Assembly (NCBI GenBank): GCA_048940925.1
Contig: JBHLOC010000002.1
Coordinates: 96,001 to 160,000, forward strand
Direction: 5' to 3'
From: Promethearchaeota archaeon
Lineage (GTDB): Archaea; Asgardarchaeota; Lokiarchaeia; Sigyniarchaeales; SOKP01
DNA length: 64,000 nt
Below the pieces are notes generated by a model. That model saw only the letters and a program-made list of their open reading frames with translations, did not search any database and had not been told where the DNA came from. Numbering within the stretch: the first letter of the stretch is position 1; every line of letters begins with the position of its first letter. Of the stretch, positions 48,120 through 61,427 are shown piece by piece. The translations under genes and the position numbers were made by a program.

Positions 48120-50063
48120 ATGAAGAATAATCAAAATCATCGGATTGGATACTATGCATGTCAATGAGGTATAAATATAAGGAGTAAAGTAGATTGCGAT
48201 GAGTTAACTGAATATGTAGCTAAAAACTTTGACGATGTTGTAATTTCTAAGAAAAATTCATTTCTATGAACTGATAATGCTCAAAAAGAGATAATTGAAG
48301 ATATTAGAGAAAAGAATTTAAATAGAATTGTGGCATCAGCTTGAACTCCACGTACTCATGAAGTAATTTATAGGGGCACAATTGCTAAAACTGATTTGAA
48401 TCCTTATTATTTTCAGATGGTAAATGTGCGTGAACACTGCTCATGGTGTACAGATAGTAGAGAAGAAGCTACAGAAAAGGCTAAAATCCTAGTAAAAAGT
48501 GGTATTGAAAGGGTTAAAAGATTAGAACCAGTTCCTATTAAGACAGTTCCGGTCACTAAAGCTACTTTAGTGATTGGAGCTGGTATTGCAGGGATGAATG
48601 CGGCTCTGGATCTAGCGAATCAAGGTATCAAGGTTTACTTAGTTGACTGTAAAACTACGATAGGAGGGAGAATGGCACAATTAGACAGAACTTTCCCGAC
48701 AGATGACTGTGCAATATGAATATGTGGTCCAAAAATGTTAGAAGTTAATAGAAATGAGAATATTGAATTATTGACTTATAGTGAAGTAAAGAATGTAGAA
48801 GGATATGTCGGTAACTACAGAGTAACAATTGAGAGGAAACCAAGATTTACTACAGATGAATGTAATGGATGTGGAGCCTGCGCTGAGGTCTGTCCAGTTT
48901 ATACGACAAATTATTTCGATGAACATTTAGGGGCACGAAAAGCAATTGATATATCATTTGGCCAAGCAGTACCTTTTTTATATGATATCGATCGAAACAC
49001 CTGTGTAGAATGTTTCTCTTGTGTAGACGCCTGTGAATTAGATGCCATAGATTTTAGTCAAGAACCAAAAGAACTTAAAATTGATGTTGGTACGATTATT
49101 ATAGCGACTGGATGGGATATATATGAACCTTTTGGTGAATACGGATATGGAGAATTTGAAAACGTTATAACTCAACCTCAATTAGAACGAATGTTAGCTC
49201 CAAATGGACCTCTTGAAGGCCATGTACACAGAATATCAGATAATAAAGAACCTAAAGAAATTGTATTTATACAATGTGTTGGAAGTCGAGAAACTGAACG
49301 AACATACTGTAGTGGTGTCTGTTGTATGCTTGCTCTAAAAAATGGAAGATTACTCTTAGAGGAATTTCCAGATGCAAATATTACAGTTTGTTATATTGAT
49401 ATTAGAACACCTGAAAAAGGATTTGAAGAGTATTACGAACGATCAAAGGAAGCGGGAATTCGAATGATTAGAGGAAAAGTAGGAGAAATCTCAGAAGATC
49501 CTGATACTAAAAATATTAAAGTTCGAGTGTATTCATCGCTTACTGATGAAATAATAATAATTGATGCTGATTTAGTAGTATTATCCACAGCAGCACTCCC
49601 TTCAAAAGGATCCGAACAAATTGTTAAACTTTTAAATCTAGATACAAATACGTATGGATTCCTTACAGAATCACACTTTGGGTTAATGCCCCAAGAGACA
49701 AAAACAAAGGGAATTTTTATTGCTGGATTTGCTCAAGGACCAAAAAATATTTCTTATTCAGTTTCTCAAGCCAGAGCTGCTGCCAGTAAAGTAGCAGAGT
49801 TAACAGCACCAGGAGAAATCGATATAGAAATGATTACAGCTGAAGTTGATAGTGAATTTTGTATATCATGCAGACGATGTGAAAAAGAATGTCCGAAAGG
49901 TGCAATTAAAATTAAGGAGGATATCGGAGCATTTATTGATGAGATAAATTGTGATGGATGTGGTATTTGTGCTACATGTTGTCCTACACAAGCTATTGAT
50001 ATAAGATATTATCGAGATCATCAATTATTTGCTGAGATTGATGGTCTTTTAGGAGGTGCGTAG
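48120..50063 (+). CDS. hdrA: Heterodisulfide reductase subunit A, selenoprotein with four Sec (U16, U50, U75, U200); 647 aa
   Basis: Single frame from ATG 48120. TGA at 48165, 48267, 48342 and 48717 each align with Cys in the downstream paralogues (CQU/CHC, FLUT/YTCS, SAUTPRTHE/ASCTPRTHE, DCAIUI/DCAICI). Confidence 0.92.
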
Positions 50064-50066
50064 ACA

Positions 50067-50537
50067 ATGAGTAAGTATAATTATAAGGTGGTAGCATTTG
50101 CGTGTATAAAATGAGGATATAGTGCAGCTGATTTAGCAGGAGTTTCCCGATTGAAATATACATCAGCTATAAAAATCATCAAAGTGCGTTGTACCGGAAG
50201 AATCGATCTAAAACATATACTCTACAGTATAAAATCTGGAGCTGACGGTGTTATGATTGTAGGATGAAGACCAAATGAATGCCAATTTAAAAAGGGTAAT
50301 TTTACGGCTGAAAAGCATGTAGAATTAGCAAACAGGATATTAGAATTGAGAGGTTTTGGAAGTCAAAGAGTAAATATGTACTGGGTAAGTGGAGCAGAAG
50401 CAGAAAAATTTGTGCGAAGTGTAGAAGATATTTTTTCGAAAGTGGAGAAAGTAGGTCCAAATCCGATAAATTTAATGGATATTAAACCAGAAATAAATAA
50501 AAAAGAAAAAGAACTAATTACAGCCCCTGTTGAATGA
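50067..50537 (+). CDS. vhuD: MvhD/VhuD [2Fe-2S] subunit, selenoprotein with two Sec (U16, U67); 156 aa
   Basis: FACIKUGYSAADLAG versus FLCNWCSYAGADLAG; VGURPNEC versus LGCHPGDC; TGA at 50112 and 50265. Confidence 0.92.
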
Positions 50538-50588
50538 TTCTTGTAAAAAATGCTAGTTACAAGAGGACTAGCCTTGCAATGGAGGGGG
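50523..50588 (+). promoter_or_regulatory. Eukaryote-like SECIS element
   Basis: AUGAU (50534-38), 8-bp stem UCUUGUAA/UUACAAGA, loop starting AAAA, GGAC (tandem GA/AG quartet); lower helix CCCCUGUUG/CAAUGG(A)GGG. Confidence 0.8.
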
Positions 50589-50645
50589 ATTATTAAATAT
50601 TATAATAGATATAGATCAAAAATTTTTAAAAAAAAGGTTTAAAAT

Positions 50646-52142
50646 GTGGTTCAGATAGGCAAAGAGTATTCCTTTGATAAGATCAATCCACGGAATTTAA
50701 TGGAAGCAACATACAGGGCTATTGAAAATTTTCAGATAAGGGCTCTTTTTGAAGCAAAAGAGGAAATTTTACAAGCTGGAAAATATTCGGAAGAAGAATT
50801 TTATGAAATTTTAGACTCAATGATCGATGCTGAAACAGAACGCACATTGATTTTAGAAGAAATACGAGGTAACGAGCCCTTATTTTTAGAAGAACTAGTA
50901 AAGATTGTAAAGGACGTGCCTCCTGTAAATGTTATTAGAGATATATTTTATTTAAAGGAACAGGGTTATATTAAAAAAGAAATCGAAACTAAAATTAAAA
51001 AAGTTATCAAGAAAATTAAAGGAGAAGAAAAAGAGGTTGAAGAAAAAGAATTTTTCTATAGATATCAAGCTAAAGATCTTCCAAATGATTTTATAGAGCA
51101 CCATTTGGAACCTGTTTCTATTGTATTTAAAGCAGGAGTATGTTGTCATTGTGGATGGTGCTCCTCTATCTGTCCTGTAAATGCCATAACTGTAACTGCT
51201 GACACACTTGAAATACACGATGAAATTTGTATTAAATGTGGATTATGTTATACAGTTTGTCCTCGTTCCTTTTCAATTGAACAAGCTTTAATGGCTATTA
51301 AAAAACTTGATAAAACCTTTAAATTTTCAGAAAAAATTAATGGTTATATCGATACCTATTCTGCCACCACAACTAAAGATGAGATCAAAAAGGTACGACA
51401 AGATGGAGGAATCGTAACCTCATTATGTGAATATTTACTTACGAATAAATTAGTTGATGCGATTGTAGCTGTTCAGCATTCAAAAGACTTATGGAAACCG
51501 GAGCCAGTTATTGTAGATAATTTAAAAGATCTCTATAAGACAGGAGGGACGAAATATGCAAATGCATCAACATTAGCAATTATTGATAAAACAAAGATGT
51601 ATGAGAACATAGCAGTAGTAGGAACTCCCTGTATGATGAATGCTTTAGAAAAAGGTCAATTATTTCCAAGCGGTATAGTCTTTTTCAAGAATATAAAATA
51701 TAAAATTGGACTTTTTTGCATGGAATCTTTTCCCTATGAGGGTGTACTTGGATTAATTAAGGAGCAATTTAAACAGGATTTTACTAAAGTAACAAAGATG
51801 GATATCAGCGGTGGTAAATTTATTATCTATATGGATTCAGGAGAAGAATTAAAAGTACCACTTAACGATATTAAATCTTATGCACGCTCTAATTGTCATT
51901 ATTGTGAAGATTTAACAGCGGATTATGCTGATATTTCTGTAGGTTCAATTGGTTCAGGAAGTGGCTGGTCTTCTGTAATCACCCGAAATAAAAAGGGAGA
52001 AAAAATTTTTAAAGCTGCAGTTAAAGCTAAGTTAATCGAAGCTAAAAGTCTAAAAGAAGTTAAACCTGGTTTAGGTTTATTAGAAAGGATTGCTCTTAGT
52101 AAGAGGAAGAACTGTAAACCAATTAATCTAGAAGGAGAATAA
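50646..52142 (+). CDS. FrhB-family protein with N-terminal helical/wHTH domain and ferredoxin
   Basis: CCHCGWCSSICP, CIKCGLCYTVCP, QDGGIVT, VGTPC, IGLFC, ADISVGSIG. Confidence 0.87.
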   Translation: MVQIGKEYSFDKINPRNLMEATYRAIENFQIRALFEAKEEILQAGKYSEEEFYEILDSMIDAETERTLILEEIRGNEPLFLEELVKIVKDVPPVNVIRDIFYLKEQGYIKKEIETKIKKVIKKIKGEEKEVEEKEFFYRYQAKDLPNDFIEHHLEPVSIVFKAGVCCHCGWCSSICPVNAITVTADTLEIHDEICIKCGLCYTVCPRSFSIEQALMAIKKLDKTFKFSEKINGYIDTYSATTTKDEIKKVRQDGGIVTSLCEYLLTNKLVDAIVAVQHSKDLWKPEPVIVDNLKDLYKTGGTKYANASTLAIIDKTKMYENIAVVGTPCMMNALEKGQLFPSGIVFFKNIKYKIGLFCMESFPYEGVLGLIKEQFKQDFTKVTKMDISGGKFIIYMDSGEELKVPLNDIKSYARSNCHYCEDLTADYADISVGSIGSGSGWSSVITRNKKGEKIFKAAVKAKLIEAKSLKEVKPGLGLLERIALSKRKNCKPINLEGE

Positions 52143-53279: not shown

Positions 53280-54536
53280 GTGAAATTTATAACAGAAATA
53301 GAAAAAAAAGGGAAACCAAAGCAAGATATTGATGAAATAGATTTATTCTTAAAAAAAATATATGAACCTAATTTAATAAATTTATTAAGAAAATGTTATC
53401 AATGTGCTCGATGTTCAGGTGTATGTCAAGTTAGCAAAGTTCAGAAGTTCACACCAAGTAGAATAATTCAGATGATTTTAGAGGGTTTTGAGGATAAGAT
53501 TATCGAAAGTGGAGTTTTATGGGATTGTTTAACATGCAATGCTTGCCTCCAAAACTGTCCTAAAGATATAAACTTTGCGGACATTGTGCGAATAGCACGA
53601 TATAAAATGCAAAAAGAAGGTTTTCACAGTCTTGATCGGTTAATATCACATAAAGGCCTTTATCCGACAATAGGTGAACTAATGAGTCAAAACCATATTG
53701 ATATTACAAGACCCTTGGATTGGATTCCAAAAGGGTGTAAAGTTAAAGATAAAGGAAATATATTATATTTTGTTGGATGCATTCCTTTTTTTGGTTATGA
53801 TTTTGAGAATTTAGACAAAATAGCGTCTAGCACATTATCAATTATTTGTAAAATTGAAAATGAGCCTATTGTTGTCCTCAAGGAAGAAGTTTGCTGTGGA
53901 CATGATTTATATTGGGGGCAAGGTAAATTTGAAGTATATATAGAATTAGCAAAAAAAAATAAAAAATTATTTGAAAAAGCAGGGATTTCCACAATAATAA
54001 CAGCATGTGCGGAATGTTATAGAACATTTAAAGTGGATTATCCCAATTTATTTGAAGATTTCGACTCAAAATTTGAAGTTAAACATATTATTGAATATGT
54101 GTATGATAATTGGAAGCTAGGGAAAATAGCTTTTAAAAGTCCTAAAAAAGCTTATCAAAATATTAATTTTACTTTTCATGATCCTTGTAGATTAAGTAGA
54201 TTTTTACCAAAAAATATAAATCTAGTAGAAGAACTTCGAGAAATTTTTACACATCTAAACAGTCTTGGGTATAATTTCAAAGAAATGAAACATAATAAGC
54301 AGAATTCATTATGTTGTGGAGTCAGTTCTTGGTTGAATTGTAATGAGCGTTCAAAAGCATTGCGATATACTAGAATTTTAGAGGCAAAGGATGTCGGTTC
54401 TAAAGTATATACATCTTGTCCTAAATGCAATATCCATTTAAATTGTATAAAGAAAGATTATGAAGATATATCTTCAGTAGAAATTTCAGATCTTTCAGAA
54501 TTTCTAGTTGATATAATTTCTATTATAAAAAATTAA
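53280..54536 (+). CDS. HdrD/GlpC-like protein (2x[4Fe-4S] + two CCG domains)
   Basis: CYQCARCSGVC, CLTCNACLQNCP, EVCCG, TACAEC, HDPCRL, LCCG, SCPKC. Confidence 0.85.
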   Translation: MKFITEIEKKGKPKQDIDEIDLFLKKIYEPNLINLLRKCYQCARCSGVCQVSKVQKFTPSRIIQMILEGFEDKIIESGVLWDCLTCNACLQNCPKDINFADIVRIARYKMQKEGFHSLDRLISHKGLYPTIGELMSQNHIDITRPLDWIPKGCKVKDKGNILYFVGCIPFFGYDFENLDKIASSTLSIICKIENEPIVVLKEEVCCGHDLYWGQGKFEVYIELAKKNKKLFEKAGISTIITACAECYRTFKVDYPNLFEDFDSKFEVKHIIEYVYDNWKLGKIAFKSPKKAYQNINFTFHDPCRLSRFLPKNINLVEELREIFTHLNSLGYNFKEMKHNKQNSLCCGVSSWLNCNERSKALRYTRILEAKDVGSKVYTSCPKCNIHLNCIKKDYEDISSVEISDLSEFLVDIISIIKN

Positions 54537-54557: not shown

Positions 54558-57500
54558 GTGGAAGGATCTGTATTAGTAATTGGAGGAGGTATTGCGGGAA
54601 TCCAAACATCTTTAGATTTAACTGAATTAGGATTCAAGGTGTATTTAGTAGAAAAAACACCCTCAATAGGAGGGAGAATGGCTCAACTTGATAAAACATT
54701 CCCTACATTAGACTGTAGTTTATGCATTTTGGCACCTAAAATGGTGGAAGTTTTAAGGAATCCTAACATTGAACTCATGACATATCATGAAGTGCAGAAA
54801 GTAACTGGAAAAACTGGAGATTTTAATGTAACAGTTCTTAAGAAACCTCGTTATATAGATGAATCAAAATGTAAAGGATGTGGAGATTGTGCCAGCAAAT
54901 GCCCTAAGATCGAAGCTCCTAATCTTTTTGACATGAATTTAGGTAAAAGGAAATCTATTTATATTCCTTTTCCTCAGGCTGTACCCCCTGTTTATTTAAT
55001 TGACTCTGAAATGTGCCTAAAACTCACTAGGGATGTATGTGGAGTATGTCAGAAAGTTTGTGAAGCGGATGCAATAGATTTCGAACAAAAGCCCCAAGAA
55101 ATTAAGTTAAAAGTAGGAGCAATTGTTGTAGCAACGGGATTTGATATGACCCAGGAAGGATTATCATCAAGGTGGGGTATATATCATGAAAATGTAATAA
55201 CTGCTTTAGAGTACGAACGAATCCTTTGTGCTAGTGGTCCGTTTGATGGTCATGTTCTACGCCCAAGTGATAAAAAAGAACCTGAAACAATAGCGTTTAT
55301 TCAGTGTGCAGGCTCCAGGGACTTACGTGAAAGAGTTCCTTATTGTTCAAGCGTATGCTGTATGTATTGTGCCAAAGAAGCCATAATCACACGGGAACAC
55401 TCTGAAAACTCAAAATGTTTTGTTTTTCGACATGATATTAGGGCATATGGAAAAAATTTCTATGAATTTACTCAAAGAGCTCAAGAAGAATATGGAGTAA
55501 CTTATTTTCATACAAAAATTAGTAAAATTAAAGAAGATCCTCAAACTAACGATTTAACTATTCTATATGAAGATTTACAAACGGGATTACTCAACGAGTT
55601 TAAAGCAAATTTAGTTATTTTAGCTACTCCGCTTATTCCATCGAAAGGTACTAGAGAATTGGCAAAAATTTTAGATATTAACTTAGATGATTATAATTTC
55701 TTTGAGGAAACATCTCACTTTTATAAATCTTTATCTTCAAGGGAGGGTGTTTTCTTAGCAGGATTTTGTCAAGGACCGATGGATATACCCGAAACCGTAG
55801 CAGATGCCAGTGGAGTGGCTTCACAGGTTGCAGCTTTACTTAACTCCGTTAAATTTACTCAAATCAAAGAAAAAGTTTTTGATGTACCAGAAAAAGAAGT
55901 TCTCTTAACTGATGATCCAAGAATTGGTGTGCTTATCTGCCACTGTGGTATTAATATAGGGAAATATATTGAAATACCAAAAGTTATAGATTATATTAAG
56001 GCATTACCGAATGTAGTTTTTTGTGAAGATAATTTATATTCATGTAGTTCTGATTCCCAGGAACTAATTAGAGAAGTCATCAAAGATTTTGATTTGAATA
56101 GGTTTATTGTTGCTTCATGTACTCCAAGAACTCATGAGGCTTTATTTCAAGAAACATGTCAAGAAGCTGGATTGAATAAGTATTTATTCGAGATGGTTAA
56201 CATACGGGACCAATGCTCTTGGGTTCATATGACTGAGAAAGAAGCAGCAACTGAAAAAGCTATTGATTTAATTGAAATGGCTATTGCTAAGTCTAGACTA
56301 TTACAACCACATACAGAACAAGAATTATCAGTGATACCTAATGCCTTAATAATTGGTGGTGGAGTATCTGGAATGACAGCTGCATTGAACATTGCAAATC
56401 AAGGATTTGATGTTTACCTCATAGAAAAGAAAAAGAAACTAGGAGGTCTTTTAAACGATTTATATCTTTTGTATCCAACTCAAGAAGATGCTTCGATATT
56501 CCTGAAGGAAATAACTCAGAAAGTTGAGAACCATAAAAATATTGAGGTTCATTTAGAGTCAAAAGTAAAAGATGTTAAAGGATATGTTGGAAATTATGAT
56601 GTATCCCTTATTAATACCAATAATGAGGTGAGCGAACTTAAAGTTGGTATTATTATTGTCGCTACTGGAGGTCAAGAATTAAAACCTGATCAATATTCGA
56701 TATATGATGATAAAAATCAAAATGTTATTACTCAATTAGAATTGGAGCAGAAATTAAAAAGTGAGGATAAGTCTTGGCTTGATAATATCAAACGAGTTAC
56801 TACAATTCTATGTGTAAATGCAAGACAAGATGAAGGGATTACATTTTGCTCAAATATATGCTGTGTAACGACTATCAAAAACATGAATATTCTAAAGGAA
56901 TTAAAACCAGACCTCGAAATCATTATCCTCTATAGAGATTTTCAAATGGCTAAAAAGGAATTTGAAGAATACTTTTTTGATAGGAGGAAAGATGCAATTC
57001 TTCTCAGATATGACATAAACAAACCACCAAAAATTACTAAAATAAAAAATAAACCTGAAAAATATGGTATAAAGGTATTTGATACTAATTTACAAGATTT
57101 CATTTCCTTTGATACAGATTTTGTAATCCTATCTCCTCCCATGATTCCATCAGATGATTCAAAAGAGTTAGGAAAAATGTTAAAAGTACCCTTAGATAGG
57201 CATGGCTTTTTCTTAGAAGCACATGCTAAATTAAGACCAGTAGATTTCGCTACTGATGGTGTTTTTCTATGTGGTTGTGCTCATTGGCCAAAACATATTC
57301 AAGAATCAATTACCCAAGCAAATGGAGCTGCTGGGAGAGCAAGCAGATTTTTAAGTTCAAAAGGCATTGTTGCATCAGGTTTAGTAGCAGAAGTAAATAG
57401 TGATATTTGTATAGGATGTGGTGTTTGTACGAAATTATGTCCTTATAATGCTATATCGAAAGATGAAGAAGGTATAGCGATTGTGAATAAACTTGTGTGT

Positions 57501-57608
57501 AAAGGCTGTGGGGTATGTGGTGCGAGTTGTCCCGAAAATGCTATAACTGTACATCACTTTACTACAGATCAGATCTTATCAGAAATCATTGTTTATGGGG
57601 GGGATTAA
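54558..57608 (+). CDS. hdrA: Large (duplicated-module) HdrA-like flavoprotein, Cys form
   Basis: Two GGGxxG FAD modules, FPTLDCSLC, CHCGINI, ASCTPRTHE, C-terminal ferredoxin. Confidence 0.88.
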   Translation: MEGSVLVIGGGIAGIQTSLDLTELGFKVYLVEKTPSIGGRMAQLDKTFPTLDCSLCILAPKMVEVLRNPNIELMTYHEVQKVTGKTGDFNVTVLKKPRYIDESKCKGCGDCASKCPKIEAPNLFDMNLGKRKSIYIPFPQAVPPVYLIDSEMCLKLTRDVCGVCQKVCEADAIDFEQKPQEIKLKVGAIVVATGFDMTQEGLSSRWGIYHENVITALEYERILCASGPFDGHVLRPSDKKEPETIAFIQCAGSRDLRERVPYCSSVCCMYCAKEAIITREHSENSKCFVFRHDIRAYGKNFYEFTQRAQEEYGVTYFHTKISKIKEDPQTNDLTILYEDLQTGLLNEFKANLVILATPLIPSKGTRELAKILDINLDDYNFFEETSHFYKSLSSREGVFLAGFCQGPMDIPETVADASGVASQVAALLNSVKFTQIKEKVFDVPEKEVLLTDDPRIGVLICHCGINIGKYIEIPKVIDYIKALPNVVFCEDNLYSCSSDSQELIREVIKDFDLNRFIVASCTPRTHEALFQETCQEAGLNKYLFEMVNIRDQCSWVHMTEKEAATEKAIDLIEMAIAKSRLLQPHTEQELSVIPNALIIGGGVSGMTAALNIANQGFDVYLIEKKKKLGGLLNDLYLLYPTQEDASIFLKEITQKVENHKNIEVHLESKVKDVKGYVGNYDVSLINTNNEVSELKVGIIIVATGGQELKPDQYSIYDDKNQNVITQLELEQKLKSEDKSWLDNIKRVTTILCVNARQDEGITFCSNICCVTTIKNMNILKELKPDLEIIILYRDFQMAKKEFEEYFFDRRKDAILLRYDINKPPKITKIKNKPEKYGIKVFDTNLQDFISFDTDFVILSPPMIPSDDSKELGKMLKVPLDRHGFFLEAHAKLRPVDFATDGVFLCGCAHWPKHIQESITQANGAAGRASRFLSSKGIVASGLVAEVNSDICIGCGVCTKLCPYNAISKDEEGIAIVNKLVCKGCGVCGASCPENAITVHHFTTDQILSEIIVYGGD

Positions 57609-58386
57609 CTTAATGGAATTCAAACCAAAAATTTTAGGATTTTTATGTAATTGGTGTTCTTATGCTGGGGCTGATCTTGCAGGTGTAAGTCGAATTCAGT
57701 ATTCTCCAAATATTAGAATTATAAGAGTTATGTGTAGCGGTAGAGTTGATCCTATCTTCATTGCTGAAGCGTTTTCTAATAATATTGATGGTGTATTAGT
57801 TTTAGGATGTCATCCTGGAGATTGCCATTATATAAGTGGCAACTATGAAGCAGAAATAAAAATGAAGATGTTGAATAAATTATTAGAATTAATAGGGTAT
57901 TCTAAACGTTTACGATTAGATTGGGTTTCTGCTGCTGAAGGTAATAGATTTGCTCAGCTAGTTGATGAATTTAATGAACATATTAAGAAATTAGGTCCTA
58001 ACCCAATAAAAAACAAAAAACTAAAAGCTAAATTATCTGACGATTTTGCTGCAATAAAATCTGTTTTGATGGATTCTAGACTTAGAATTTTAGTGGGTAG
58101 AGAAAGAAAAATCACTACAGAAGGAAATGCATATAATGAGATAATCCCTATAGAGGAATTTGACCAAAAAATTGACGATGCAATTAATAATGAATTTTCA
58201 CGATATAAAATATTGCAAAAAATCTCTCACCATAGTAAATCTGTCCCAGAAATCTCTAAAGAGGTTCAAATTGCGCCAAATGAAGTATTAAATCACATTG
58301 TTACTTTAAGACAAAGAGGGCTTGTTGATTTAGATGAGGTTAATGAAGAAATACCAACATTTATTTCAATTAAGGAGGGTAAATAA
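57589..58386 (+). CDS. mvhD: MvhD (Cys form) with C-terminal helical/wHTH extension
   Basis: CNWCSYAGAD, RVMCSGRVD, GCHPGDCHY; tail SVPEISKEVQIAPNEVLNHIVTLRQRGLV; start probably ATG 57613. Confidence 0.88.
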   Translation: MFMGGINLMEFKPKILGFLCNWCSYAGADLAGVSRIQYSPNIRIIRVMCSGRVDPIFIAEAFSNNIDGVLVLGCHPGDCHYISGNYEAEIKMKMLNKLLELIGYSKRLRLDWVSAAEGNRFAQLVDEFNEHIKKLGPNPIKNKKLKAKLSDDFAAIKSVLMDSRLRILVGRERKITTEGNAYNEIIPIEEFDQKIDDAINNEFSRYKILQKISHHSKSVPEISKEVQIAPNEVLNHIVTLRQRGLVDLDEVNEEIPTFISIKEGK

Positions 58387-61300
58387 TGGAGAAAATAGGC
58401 GCTGTATTAGTGATAGGGGCAGGAATAGCAGGTATTCAAGCATCTATTGATTTAGCAGATTCTGGTTATAAAGTATATCTAGCGGAATCGACGATGAGTA
58501 TCGGTGGAGTTATGTCACAGCTAGATAAAACATTTCCTACAAATGATTGTGCTATATGTATACTCGCTCCAAAATTAGTACTTACTGGTCGTCATGAGAA
58601 TATAGATATTCTAATAAATTCCTCTATCGAAAAAATTGAAGGAAAACCTGGGAATTTTAAGGTTGAATTAAAACAGAAATCATTATATTTAGATCAAAAT
58701 AAATGCACAGGTTGCGGTGTCTGTGCTCAAAAATGTCCTATTGAAGCTATTGATTTTTTCAATGAAGGTCTTTCGAAAAAATCTGCGATATCTGTAAAAT
58801 TTCCCCAAGCAGTTCCTTTAGTGTTTTCAATAGATAAAGAAAAATGTATAGGTTGCGAAGTTTGTAAAGAAATTTGTAAAGCTGATGCAATAGATTATAA
58901 GTTAAAAGAAAAAAAAATTAATCTTAATGTAGGAGCAGTAATTTTAGCGGTTGGATTTGATGAATTTGAACCTGCTCCTTTAACAAATCTAGGATATGGT
59001 AAATTTTTAAATGTAATAACGAGTATTCAATTTGAGCGCATATTAAGCGCTAGTGGACCACACTCTGGTTTAATACTTCGTCCTTCGGATGGGATTATAC
59101 CCAGAAAAATAGCATTCCTACAATGTGTTGGATCAAGGGATAAAAGACATAATGTTGAATATTGTTCCTCAGTATGTTGTATGTATACTACAAAAGAAGC
59201 CGTAATTGCAAAAGAACATGTTAATATTATAGAACCAACTATTTTTACAATGGATATACGTGCATATGGTAAAGATTTTGATAAGTATATTGAACGAGCA
59301 AAACATGAACATGGGATACGATATATTAGAAGTAGAATTTCGAAAGTTAGTGAAATTCAAGACTCTAAAGATTTAAAGATTCGATATGAAACAGAAGATG
59401 GAAAAATCATCGAAGAGACCTTTAATTTAGTTGTTTTAGCTGTCGGAGCCCAACCTAATCATAGTGCTAAAGAATTGGCTGAAAAACTAGACGTTGAGTT
59501 AAATGAATACGGTTTTTGTAAGACTAATAGGTTTAATCCGGTAGAAACATCACAACCAGGGATTTATGTATGTGGGATGTTTGCTTCGCCTAAAGATATT
59601 CCAGAAACTGTTATCGAAGCAAGTGCTGCTGCTGGATGTGTGAATGTTCTTCTCTCTGAAACAAGAAATACATTAATCTCAAAGAAAGAAATGCCTGAAG
59701 AAATTGATGTGTCTGATGAACCCCCCCGAATAGGTGTTTTTATTTGTCATTGCGGGATAAATATTGGTGGTGTTGTTAATGTTCCTGAAGTAGTTGAATA
59801 TGCTAAATCTCTTCCAAGCGTAGTTTACGCTGAACATAATCTCTATACATGTTCTGCTGATACTCAAACTAATATTAAAGAAAAAATTCAAGAATATCAG
59901 CTTAATAGAGTTATAGTTGCCTCATGTACTCCGCGAACACATGAGCCATTGTTTCAAGCAACAATTCAGGAGGTAGGATTAAATAAATATCTGTTTGAGA
60001 TGGTCAATATTCGAGATCAGTGTTCTTGGGTTCACATGCATGAAGCTGAAAATGCTACCTTTAAAGCAAAAGACTTAATAAGAATGTCAGTAGCTAAAGC
60101 TAAGCAATTAGTACCATTGCAAGAACAAGAAATTGATGTGGTTGATAAAGGATTAATTATAGGCGGAGGTGTATCTGGAATGTCAGCAGCACTAAACCTA
60201 GCATCTCAAGGTTTTGAAGTATACTTACTTGAGAAGGAGGATTCTCTAGGCGGATTTGCTAAAAATATATTTCAAAGCCTTGAAAATGATAATATACAGG
60301 AATTTCTTGAAAATCTAATAAAAGCAGTTAAAGATAATCAATTGATTCATGCATATACAAATGCTCAAATCAATTCAATTTCAGGATACATTGGGAATTT
60401 TACCACCAATATAAATTATGGAAAAAATAATAAAAATGTGGATCTTGAGCATGGAATAATAATTGTAGCTACTGGAGCTAGAGAATATCAGCCAACAGAA
60501 TATAGCTTTGGAAAAGATAAAAGAATTATATCTCAAACTGAATTTGAAAAAATTCTTTTTACCACTGATAATATAAAGAATTTAAAATCAATTGTGATGA
60601 TTCAATGTGTTGGTTCTAGAAATGAAGAACATCCATATTGTAGTCGAATATGTTGCTCTGAAGCTATTAAAAATGCATTAAAAGCAAAAGAAATTGATCC
60701 TAATATTGAAATAGTAATTTTATATCGCGATATAAGAACCTACGGTTTTAAAGAGAAGTATTATAACCAAGCAAGAGAAAATAAAGTGATTTTTGTTAGA
60801 TTTGATGAAAATAATCCTCCAGAATTAAATATAAAAAACAAAAAATTAAGTATTTCTCTTAATAGACCTACCTTAGGAGATTTGGAAATTAATCCAGATT
60901 TGTTAGTATTAAGCACTGGGCTGGTAGCACCTCAAAAAGAAAATGAAGATTTAGCTAAAATGCTCAAAGTGCCGCTTAATGAAGATAAATTCTTTCTGGA
61001 AGCTCATGTTAAGTTAAGACCTATTGATTTCGCAACGGATGGGATATTCTTATGTGGATGTGCTCATTCACCTAAAAATATCAGAGAATCAATTGCTCAA
61101 GCAAATGGTGCCGCTGCCCAAGCAGTTAAAATTTTAAGTGCTGAAAATATTGTTACATCCGGTCTAGTTGCTACTGTAGTAGAAGAAAATTGTATTGGTT
61201 GTGGAACATGCGTTGAAGTTTGTCAATTTAATGCAATTGATTTAATTGAAAAAGAAAAAGTGTTTGAAGATTGTATAATTAAAATAAAAAAATCTCATAT

Positions 61301-61427
61301 TAATCCTGCCCTTTGTAAAGGTTGTGGCACATGTGGAGCGCAATGTCCAAATTCCGCAATTATTGTTAAGCATTTTGGTTTTGAGCAAATAACCGCTATG
61401 ATTTCAGCACTTTTAATTCAAAGTTAA
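58386..61427 (+). CDS. hdrA: Large HdrA-like flavoprotein, Cys form
   Basis: Same architecture as 54558..57608; FPTNDCAIC. Confidence 0.88.
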   Translation: MEKIGAVLVIGAGIAGIQASIDLADSGYKVYLAESTMSIGGVMSQLDKTFPTNDCAICILAPKLVLTGRHENIDILINSSIEKIEGKPGNFKVELKQKSLYLDQNKCTGCGVCAQKCPIEAIDFFNEGLSKKSAISVKFPQAVPLVFSIDKEKCIGCEVCKEICKADAIDYKLKEKKINLNVGAVILAVGFDEFEPAPLTNLGYGKFLNVITSIQFERILSASGPHSGLILRPSDGIIPRKIAFLQCVGSRDKRHNVEYCSSVCCMYTTKEAVIAKEHVNIIEPTIFTMDIRAYGKDFDKYIERAKHEHGIRYIRSRISKVSEIQDSKDLKIRYETEDGKIIEETFNLVVLAVGAQPNHSAKELAEKLDVELNEYGFCKTNRFNPVETSQPGIYVCGMFASPKDIPETVIEASAAAGCVNVLLSETRNTLISKKEMPEEIDVSDEPPRIGVFICHCGINIGGVVNVPEVVEYAKSLPSVVYAEHNLYTCSADTQTNIKEKIQEYQLNRVIVASCTPRTHEPLFQATIQEVGLNKYLFEMVNIRDQCSWVHMHEAENATFKAKDLIRMSVAKAKQLVPLQEQEIDVVDKGLIIGGGVSGMSAALNLASQGFEVYLLEKEDSLGGFAKNIFQSLENDNIQEFLENLIKAVKDNQLIHAYTNAQINSISGYIGNFTTNINYGKNNKNVDLEHGIIIVATGAREYQPTEYSFGKDKRIISQTEFEKILFTTDNIKNLKSIVMIQCVGSRNEEHPYCSRICCSEAIKNALKAKEIDPNIEIVILYRDIRTYGFKEKYYNQARENKVIFVRFDENNPPELNIKNKKLSISLNRPTLGDLEINPDLLVLSTGLVAPQKENEDLAKMLKVPLNEDKFFLEAHVKLRPIDFATDGIFLCGCAHSPKNIRESIAQANGAAAQAVKILSAENIVTSGLVATVVEENCIGCGTCVEVCQFNAIDLIEKEKVFEDCIIKIKKSHINPALCKGCGTCGAQCPNSAIIVKHFGFEQITAMISALLIQS

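Follow-up and report, generated by a model that had tools for sequence, protein, structure and literature searches.

Within the window, i.e., the whole stretch of 64,000 nucleotides analyzed here, a gene for an HdrA-family protein is followed on the same strand by vhuD, a putative SECIS element, and an FrhB-like gene. The features of this locus are as follows:

48120..50063, +: hdrA coding sequence, 647 codons, four UGA codons read as selenocysteine (Sec), TAG stop (translation; phmmer against the PDB)
48120..48524, +: N-terminal alpha/beta domain, codons 1-135, carrying the [4Fe-4S] cluster HA3/A3 in solved HdrA (AlphaFold2, Foldseek)
48165..48167, +: UGA, predicted Sec16, in the N-terminal domain where strand 1 ends, at the second position of the CxC motif; TGA in 17/17 close orthologs, Cys in 150/150 representatives
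48267..48269, +: UGA, predicted Sec50, in the N-terminal domain, following strand 2; TGA in 44/72 and TGT (Cys) in 28/72 orthologs, Cys in 150/150 representatives
48342..48344, +: UGA, predicted Sec75, in the N-terminal domain, following strand 3 (SAUTPRTHE); TGA in 72/72 orthologs, Cys in 150/150 representatives
48717..48719, +: UGA, predicted Sec200, canonical Sec position of HdrA, located in the FAD domain as the second member of the DCxxC/U pair (alignment to 9sfi_A and 5odc_A)
50067..50537, +: vhuD/mvhD (FlpD family), 156 codons, predicted Sec16 (50112) and Sec67 (50265) (translation; Pfam FlpD, 1.6e-42)
50534..50567, +: putative Loki-type SECIS, composed of AUGA, a stem of 9 bp (50538-50546 paired to 50557-50565), a loop of sequence AAAAUGCUAG, and GA (sequence; comparison of loci)
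50646..52142, +: FrhB-like gene after the SECIS (Pfam FrhB_FdhB_N, FrhB_FdhB_C, and Fer4)

Re-translation reproduced the frame that had originally been predicted. No TAA or TAG occurs within 48120-50063 (+), and the translation with TGA read as U comprises 647 residues followed by a TAG stop, the in-frame TGA codons being codons 16, 50, 75, and 200 (48165, 48267, 48342, and 48717). Given the base composition of the window, 647 codons devoid of TAA and TAG are expected by chance with a probability of about 7.5e-19, and the chance of all four TGA codons falling on the 26 invariant Cys columns is about 2.6e-6. An SD-like GAGGTG motif is located 15 nt upstream of the ATG, and the start Met is the same in the orthologs. 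Standard annotation had been predicted to split the gene and to lose its first 92 codons, and exactly this was seen in the table-11 ORF listing, where hdrA is represented by the fragments 48396-48719 (107 aa, starting from codon 93) and 48735-50063 (442 aa). Neither of the two was found by exact look-up in the protein collection.

Comparison of the translation with the PDB (phmmer, residues 6-646) yielded matches to five solved HdrA chains with E-values between 4e-199 and 7e-159, the best being 9sfi_A (4e-199) and 5odc_A (1.1e-194), followed by 8rvu, 8rvv, and 7bkb. The domain order is that of structurally characterized HdrA over the full length, the FAD dinucleotide-binding motif is present, Pfam matches to Pyr_redox_2 and Fer4 were obtained, and the Cys sets for six [4Fe-4S] clusters were recovered in the N-terminal domain, in C386/C397/C401/C402, and in two ferredoxin domains. 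The columns of these cofactor Cys are occupied by C or U in the hdrA product as well as in nine other full-length paralogs of the genome. Judged from its sequence, the product is hence confirmed as HdrA, the FAD and Fe-S subunit of soluble heterodisulfide reductase-type bifurcating complexes, as had been proposed. The NCBIfam cut-offs for the methanogen equivalogs were missed (HdrA2, 769.8 bits vs. 1100; HdrA, 602.4 vs. 1400). The protein is an HdrA-family member of a non-methanogen, and its equivalence to the methanogen CoB-CoM HdrA is not supported by these scores.

The spacer between the TAG of hdrA and vhuD is only 3 nt long, and the TGA stop of vhuD (50535-50537) provides the UGA of the SECIS AUGA core at 50534. 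The NCBIfam VhuD match of 50067..50537 reached 158.9 bits and thus remained below the cut-off of 215. The FrhB-like gene after the SECIS was kept in 75 of 80 orthologous loci and probably encodes an electron-input subunit. Farther along, the window contains another FrhB-like gene, followed by an HdrD-like gene (53280-54536) and the fused HdrA genes; no hydrogenase was found in the window, and neither a hydrogenase subunit nor a separate HdrB/C was seen beside hdrA-vhuD.

Conservation and decoding of the UGA codons

Orthologs of hdrA were searched for in 400 genomes of the phylum. An ortholog with three or four TGA codons was present in 99 of the 134 genomes of the same family, covering 11 genera, and outside the family none was detected among the 400 genomes at an E-value of 1e-85 or better. 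The pattern C14-U16-U50-U75-C197-U200 was observed in 44 of 72 orthologs, and the remaining 28 differ solely by TGT at position 50; consequently, all four sites are kept as TGA or Cys throughout this set. The TGA at position 200 occurs in all orthologs and in every Sec-type paralog, and the one at position 16 in all five Sec-type HdrA paralogs of the genome. In the phmmer alignment to the solved structures, U200 faces the X (Sec) of 9sfi_A and Cys197 of 5odc_A; it is thus the known Sec site of methanococcal HdrA, in agreement with the background on which the original prediction drew. U16, U50, and U75 face Cys13, Cys46, and Cys71 of 5odc_A.

The prediction that each TGA stands where two paralogs of the window have Cys was borne out, with the sites divided between the two halves of these proteins. 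The paralogs at 54558-57608 and 58386-61427 are fused double-HdrA genes. Their first halves feature the DCxxC pair, with Cys opposite U200, and are devoid of the N-terminal domain, whereas their second halves possess this domain, with Cys opposite U16, U50, and U75, and have no Cys at 197/200.

Across 17 orthologs, synonymous change (pS) amounted to 0.62 with the TGA codons unchanged, and pN/pS was 0.12 ahead of the last TGA (codons 2-199) and 0.11 past it (codons 201-646). In all loci read, the stop codon of hdrA is TAA or TAG. A pseudogene or TGA codons introduced by assembly errors would account for the fragments returned by standard ORF calling, but the same TGA codons recur in 72 independently assembled genomes amid near-saturated synonymous change, and purifying selection is equal before and after them, so that the probability of this explanation is negligible. 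Ortholog TGA conservation, pN/pS, and TGA stop usage (see below) together rule out pseudogene, assembly error, and code reassignment for practical purposes.

Two sequence variants were noticed among the orthologs. One ortholog (L037/L124, genome G011) features a fifth TGA at column 614, which corresponds to a Cys of the CxxCxxC motif of the C-terminal ferredoxin. In two loci from SRP239594 MAGs (L121:663-2642 and L122:1501-3483), codon 101 of hdrA is followed by 39 inserted nt that contain stop codons as well as an internal hairpin (AAGAGTA...ACTCTT); this insertion is absent from the window and may represent a mini-intron.

The genome, featuring a GC content of 29.6%, uses TGA to end 13% of all frames of at least 300 codons, about as often as TAG. 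TGA is therefore an ordinary stop, and the code is not reassigned. A tRNA-Sec (63.7 bits, anticodon TCA) and SepSecS (484.6 bits) were identified, together with an EFSec-like factor whose best solved relative is the SelB of M. maripaludis (4ac9, E 7.5e-90) and whose score of 240.3 lies just below the NCBIfam cut-off of 242.25. A PSTK-like gene scored 139 bits, below the cut-off of 290.5, and two adjacent selD genes contain one TGA each (C72:3553-6078). The EFSec-like gene, tRNA-Sec, and SepSecS are all located within 6.5 kb (G000:C3:45426-51927), the tRNA-Sec adjoining SepSecS and the EFSec-like gene being about 4 kb away. Accordingly, the machinery that was to be looked for in the genome was encountered, and the Sec pathway (tRNA-Sec, PSTK-like, SepSecS, SelD, and EFSec-like) appears to be complete.

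The second element of Sec decoding is the hairpin overlapping the end of vhuD. It was found 432-480 nt past the hdrA stop in 74 of the 75 orthologous loci with enough sequence. Among 67 aligned elements, the AUGA, the AAA of the loop, and the 3' A are invariant; two-sided changes were recorded at all 9 stem pairs, and the observed covariation was reached by none of 500 shuffles. The figure of 94% paired positions is partly circular, as the loci were chosen by a pattern that demands pairing. The minimum-free-energy fold of the single sequence was no more stable than shuffles (z -0.83), and support for the element thus comes from the comparison of loci and not from the single-sequence fold. No Rfam family reached its gathering score in the window. 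With a lower helix included, the element may span about 50523-50589. By its features, 50534-50567 is a lokiSECIS, the eukaryote-like SECIS that Mariotti et al. (2016) described from Asgard archaea.

A SECIS-like hairpin is located downstream of each of the five Sec-type hdrA genes in the genome. The six UGA codons of hdrA and vhuD are located between 269 and 2369 nt upstream of the SECIS core. Because of the 3-nt spacer and the lack of another candidate element between hdrA and vhuD, we infer that one SECIS serves both cistrons. The two genes would then probably be present on one mRNA, and through the single eukaryote-like SECIS past vhuD, Sec-tRNA(Sec) and its specific elongation factor would be brought to all six UGA codons, 0.27 to 2.4 kb upstream.

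Further hairpins of the lokiSECIS type (AUGA, 9-bp stem, AAAAA loop, GA) were observed away from hdrA, namely at C7:42985(-), C41:223006(-), and C63:88551(+) of G000, and represent candidates for other selenoprotein genes. Many weaker matches to the SECIS pattern in this AT-rich genome are probably due to chance.

Under selenium shortage, Cys is inserted at UGA in other systems, and on this basis near-cognate or reassigned decoding might place Cys, Trp, or Gly at the hdrA codons. Such a scenario is very improbable, since TGA is a normal stop in this genome, in-frame TGA is restricted to Cys columns of known selenoprotein families, and a full Sec pathway and a SECIS are present. The four hdrA UGA codons almost certainly encode selenocysteine, and the proposed four-Sec HdrA is upheld by the position of the TGA codons on Cys columns, the 72 orthologs, and the Sec machinery together with the SECIS.

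The N-terminal domain and cluster HA3

U200 would correspond to the Sec already known from the CxxC/U pair next to the bifurcating FAD. The other three sites are located in the N-terminal domain, which is not covered by any Pfam family. The AlphaFold2 model of residues 5-135 (pLDDT 95) was matched by Foldseek to the HdrA N-terminal domains of 8rvu, 5odc, and 7bkb with TM scores of 0.89-0.92 and rmsd values of 1.2-1.8 Å. In the model, positions 14, 16, 50, and 75 are located at or just past the C-terminal ends of strands 1-3. Together with His80, they are the sole invariant Cys/His positions of the domain, as seen in ten full-length paralogs of the genome, in a 29-sequence alignment, and in 150/150 diverse representatives drawn from a family with 4151 hits. 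Cys107 is replaced by V, D, N, A, or S in 25% of these representatives and is also replaced in some orthologs and in the M. maripaludis chain 9sfi_A.

Despite a Cys-to-Cys register, homology between the HdrA N-terminal domain and VhuD/MvhD is not supported, given an hhalign probability of 2% (P 0.023). Likewise, the Foldseek search with the N-domain model returned only HdrA chains as significant and no MvhD.

In the HdrA structure of 2017, a [4Fe-4S] cluster (HA3 or A3) is reportedly located in the N-terminal domain. The domain bearing this mobile 'shuttle' cluster swings by 20 Å or more (PMC13580544, PMC12350162). The literature disagrees on the HA3 ligand set. From a crystal structure, three N-domain Cys and Cys197 of the partner protomer were read as ligands (PMC9012536), this being the only explicit ligand statement in the literature searched. 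In the cryo-EM papers, the Cys/Sec pair is treated as a separate redox or ligand-binding site that binds a ligand or forms an Se-S bridge (PMC13580544, PMC13518236).

U16, U50, and U75 thus occupy three of the four invariant Cys positions in the HA3 domain. As three or four ligands are needed from the swinging domain and only four invariant Cys are available, at least two of the three predicted Sec residues should be ligands, and most simply all three are. HA3 is most likely held mainly by selenolates, and it is rather probable that it represents a natural [4Fe-4S] cluster with three Sec ligands. Under the reading of PMC9012536, docked HA3 would have three or four Se ligands, the number being four if Sec200 of the partner protomer bound in addition to all three N-domain Sec. 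The largely Se-ligated Fe-S site of the original prediction therefore stands with respect to the position of U16, U50, and U75, and direct Fe-Se ligation is to be regarded as plausible.

The most serious alternative accepts a real four-Sec HdrA and proposes that the N-domain Sec residues are redox-active selenols instead of Fe ligands, forming a selenol/thiol relay that links HA3 with the CxxU pair and with FAD, comparable to the 'multiple catalytic Cys' of Mariotti et al. In the same work, a role as cluster ligands was denied for the extra HdrA Sec sites (PMC4989117). That statement dates from 2016, before any HdrA structure, and is thus older than the 2017 structure with its cluster in the N-terminal domain. 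An Se-S bridge at Sec197 would also be compatible with a relay, the 2026 structure paper calling the role of Sec in HdrA unresolved (PMC13518236), and so would the 'additional' conserved Cys described for HdrA and MvhD between clusters and FAD (PMC13580544). Each Asgard Sec-type HdrA gene read has U16 and U200 in combination, which would fit a functional pair. The number of invariant Cys argues against selenols at all three sites: with only four such positions and three or four ligands needed, at most one Sec can be a non-ligand, and the only other ligand candidate is the frequently replaced Cys107. A relay of redox-active selenols is consequently considered unlikely, although considerably less so than decoding of UGA as another amino acid.

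Taken as a whole, the explanation that is very likely to hold comprises an intact four-Sec hdrA of a Loki-type Asgard archaeon, a SECIS probably shared with vhuD, and an HA3 cluster most likely held mainly by selenolates. It builds on what was observed in this study, namely the gene identity, UGA codons that are conserved within a frame under purifying selection, the SECIS, and the genes for Sec synthesis and insertion. Selenium would be incorporated at all four sites, would ligate Fe directly in HA3, and could act through redox potential or ligand exchange.

Stepwise spread of Sec among HdrA paralogs

The Sec sites in the Asgard HdrA genes read are nested: 200 alone, 16+200, 16+75+200, and 16+50+75+200. 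The combination 16+200 is the common Sec form and was found in all five Sec-type paralogs of the genome. This order of gain fits selection on one functional site that takes in the shuttle-cluster domain along with the FAD-side pair. The nesting does not discriminate between redox potential, ligand exchange, and oxidation resistance as the advantage.

Two paralogs deviate in other respects. The Sec-type HdrA at G000:C85:64836-66755 (L017) features a third TGA at the Cys402 column, in the adjacent CC pair of C386/C397/C401/C402, and its SECIS-like hairpin (AUGA...AA) is located about 100 nt past its own stop and not past a vhuD. The Cys-type HdrA at G000:C55:60825-62768 (L021) possesses a C-terminal extension with two TGA codons opposite Cys of the longer forms L022 and L023, and possibly represents HdrA fused to MvhD, with Sec confined to the MvhD portion.

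With Sec having spread from the CxxU pair on the FAD side into the domain of the shuttle cluster, the hand-over between HA3 and FAD is indicated as the selenium-relevant step. If HA3 indeed has three Sec ligands, the stepwise spread (200, +16, +75, +50) would mark selection on one electron-transfer site, and the Asgard enzymes would provide a natural series for the role of Sec in HdrA. Natural Cys/Sec variants are available in the Cys50 and Sec50 orthologs and in the two-, three-, and four-Sec paralogs. Furthermore, gene callers cut hdrA and vhuD into fragments, so that the redox metabolism of Asgard archaea is captured incompletely when UGA recoding is left out of account.

Comparison with known systems

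The fused double-HdrA genes of the window show the same complementary pattern as ANME HdrA (PMC9012536), with the halves in opposite order. The Cys-type HdrA of Methanothermococcus thermolithotrophicus (5ODC) and Methanothermobacter marburgensis (8RVU) match the hdrA product over its full length at E 1e-190 or better, and their N-terminal domains superpose on the model at 1.2-1.4 Å; both have Cys at all four positions where the window gene has UGA. The VhuD-associated HdrA of Methanococcales (9sfi, PMC13518236) shares the domain order, the cofactor motifs, the Sec at the second position of DCxxC, and a two-Sec vhuD. It differs in having one Sec, at the canonical site, and Cys at the three N-domain sites, whereas four Sec are predicted for the window HdrA. 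In addition, the methanococcal genes rely on an archaeal-type SECIS and belong to a CoM-S-S-CoB reductase complex with a [NiFeSe] hydrogenase, while the neighbors of the window hdrA are FrhB-like and HdrD-like genes, with no hydrogenase in the window.

The closest counterparts are the HdrA-VhuD tandems of Lokiarchaeota with one shared SECIS after vhuD, described by Mariotti et al. in 2016 (PMC4989117). The original prediction had referred to multi-Sec selenoproteins reported for Lokiarchaeota, which is true and understated, because that study reported multi-Sec HdrA itself, with up to four Sec, as well as pairs with up to six UGA codons over about 2 kb and the avoidance of UGA as hdrA stop. 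Later, 1439 Asgard selenoproteins with the same arrangement were catalogued (2024, PMC11227280); the supplementary tables of PMC4989117 and PMC11227280 contain no list of HdrA sites as text. The window shares with these pairs a multi-Sec HdrA including the canonical site and a two-Sec VhuD directly downstream, and its SECIS shares with lokiSECIS the single copy after vhuD, the AUGA...GA core, the 9-bp stem, and the A-rich loop of about 11 nt. Nothing essential differs between the window and the Lokiarchaeota pairs, and the gene type, the vhuD partner, and the recoding signal are already published. Unlike the reading in PMC4989117, the three extra sites map, on the later structures, to invariant Cys of the HA3 domain, and the interpretation of HA3 as a selenium-ligated cluster is plausible and modestly new.
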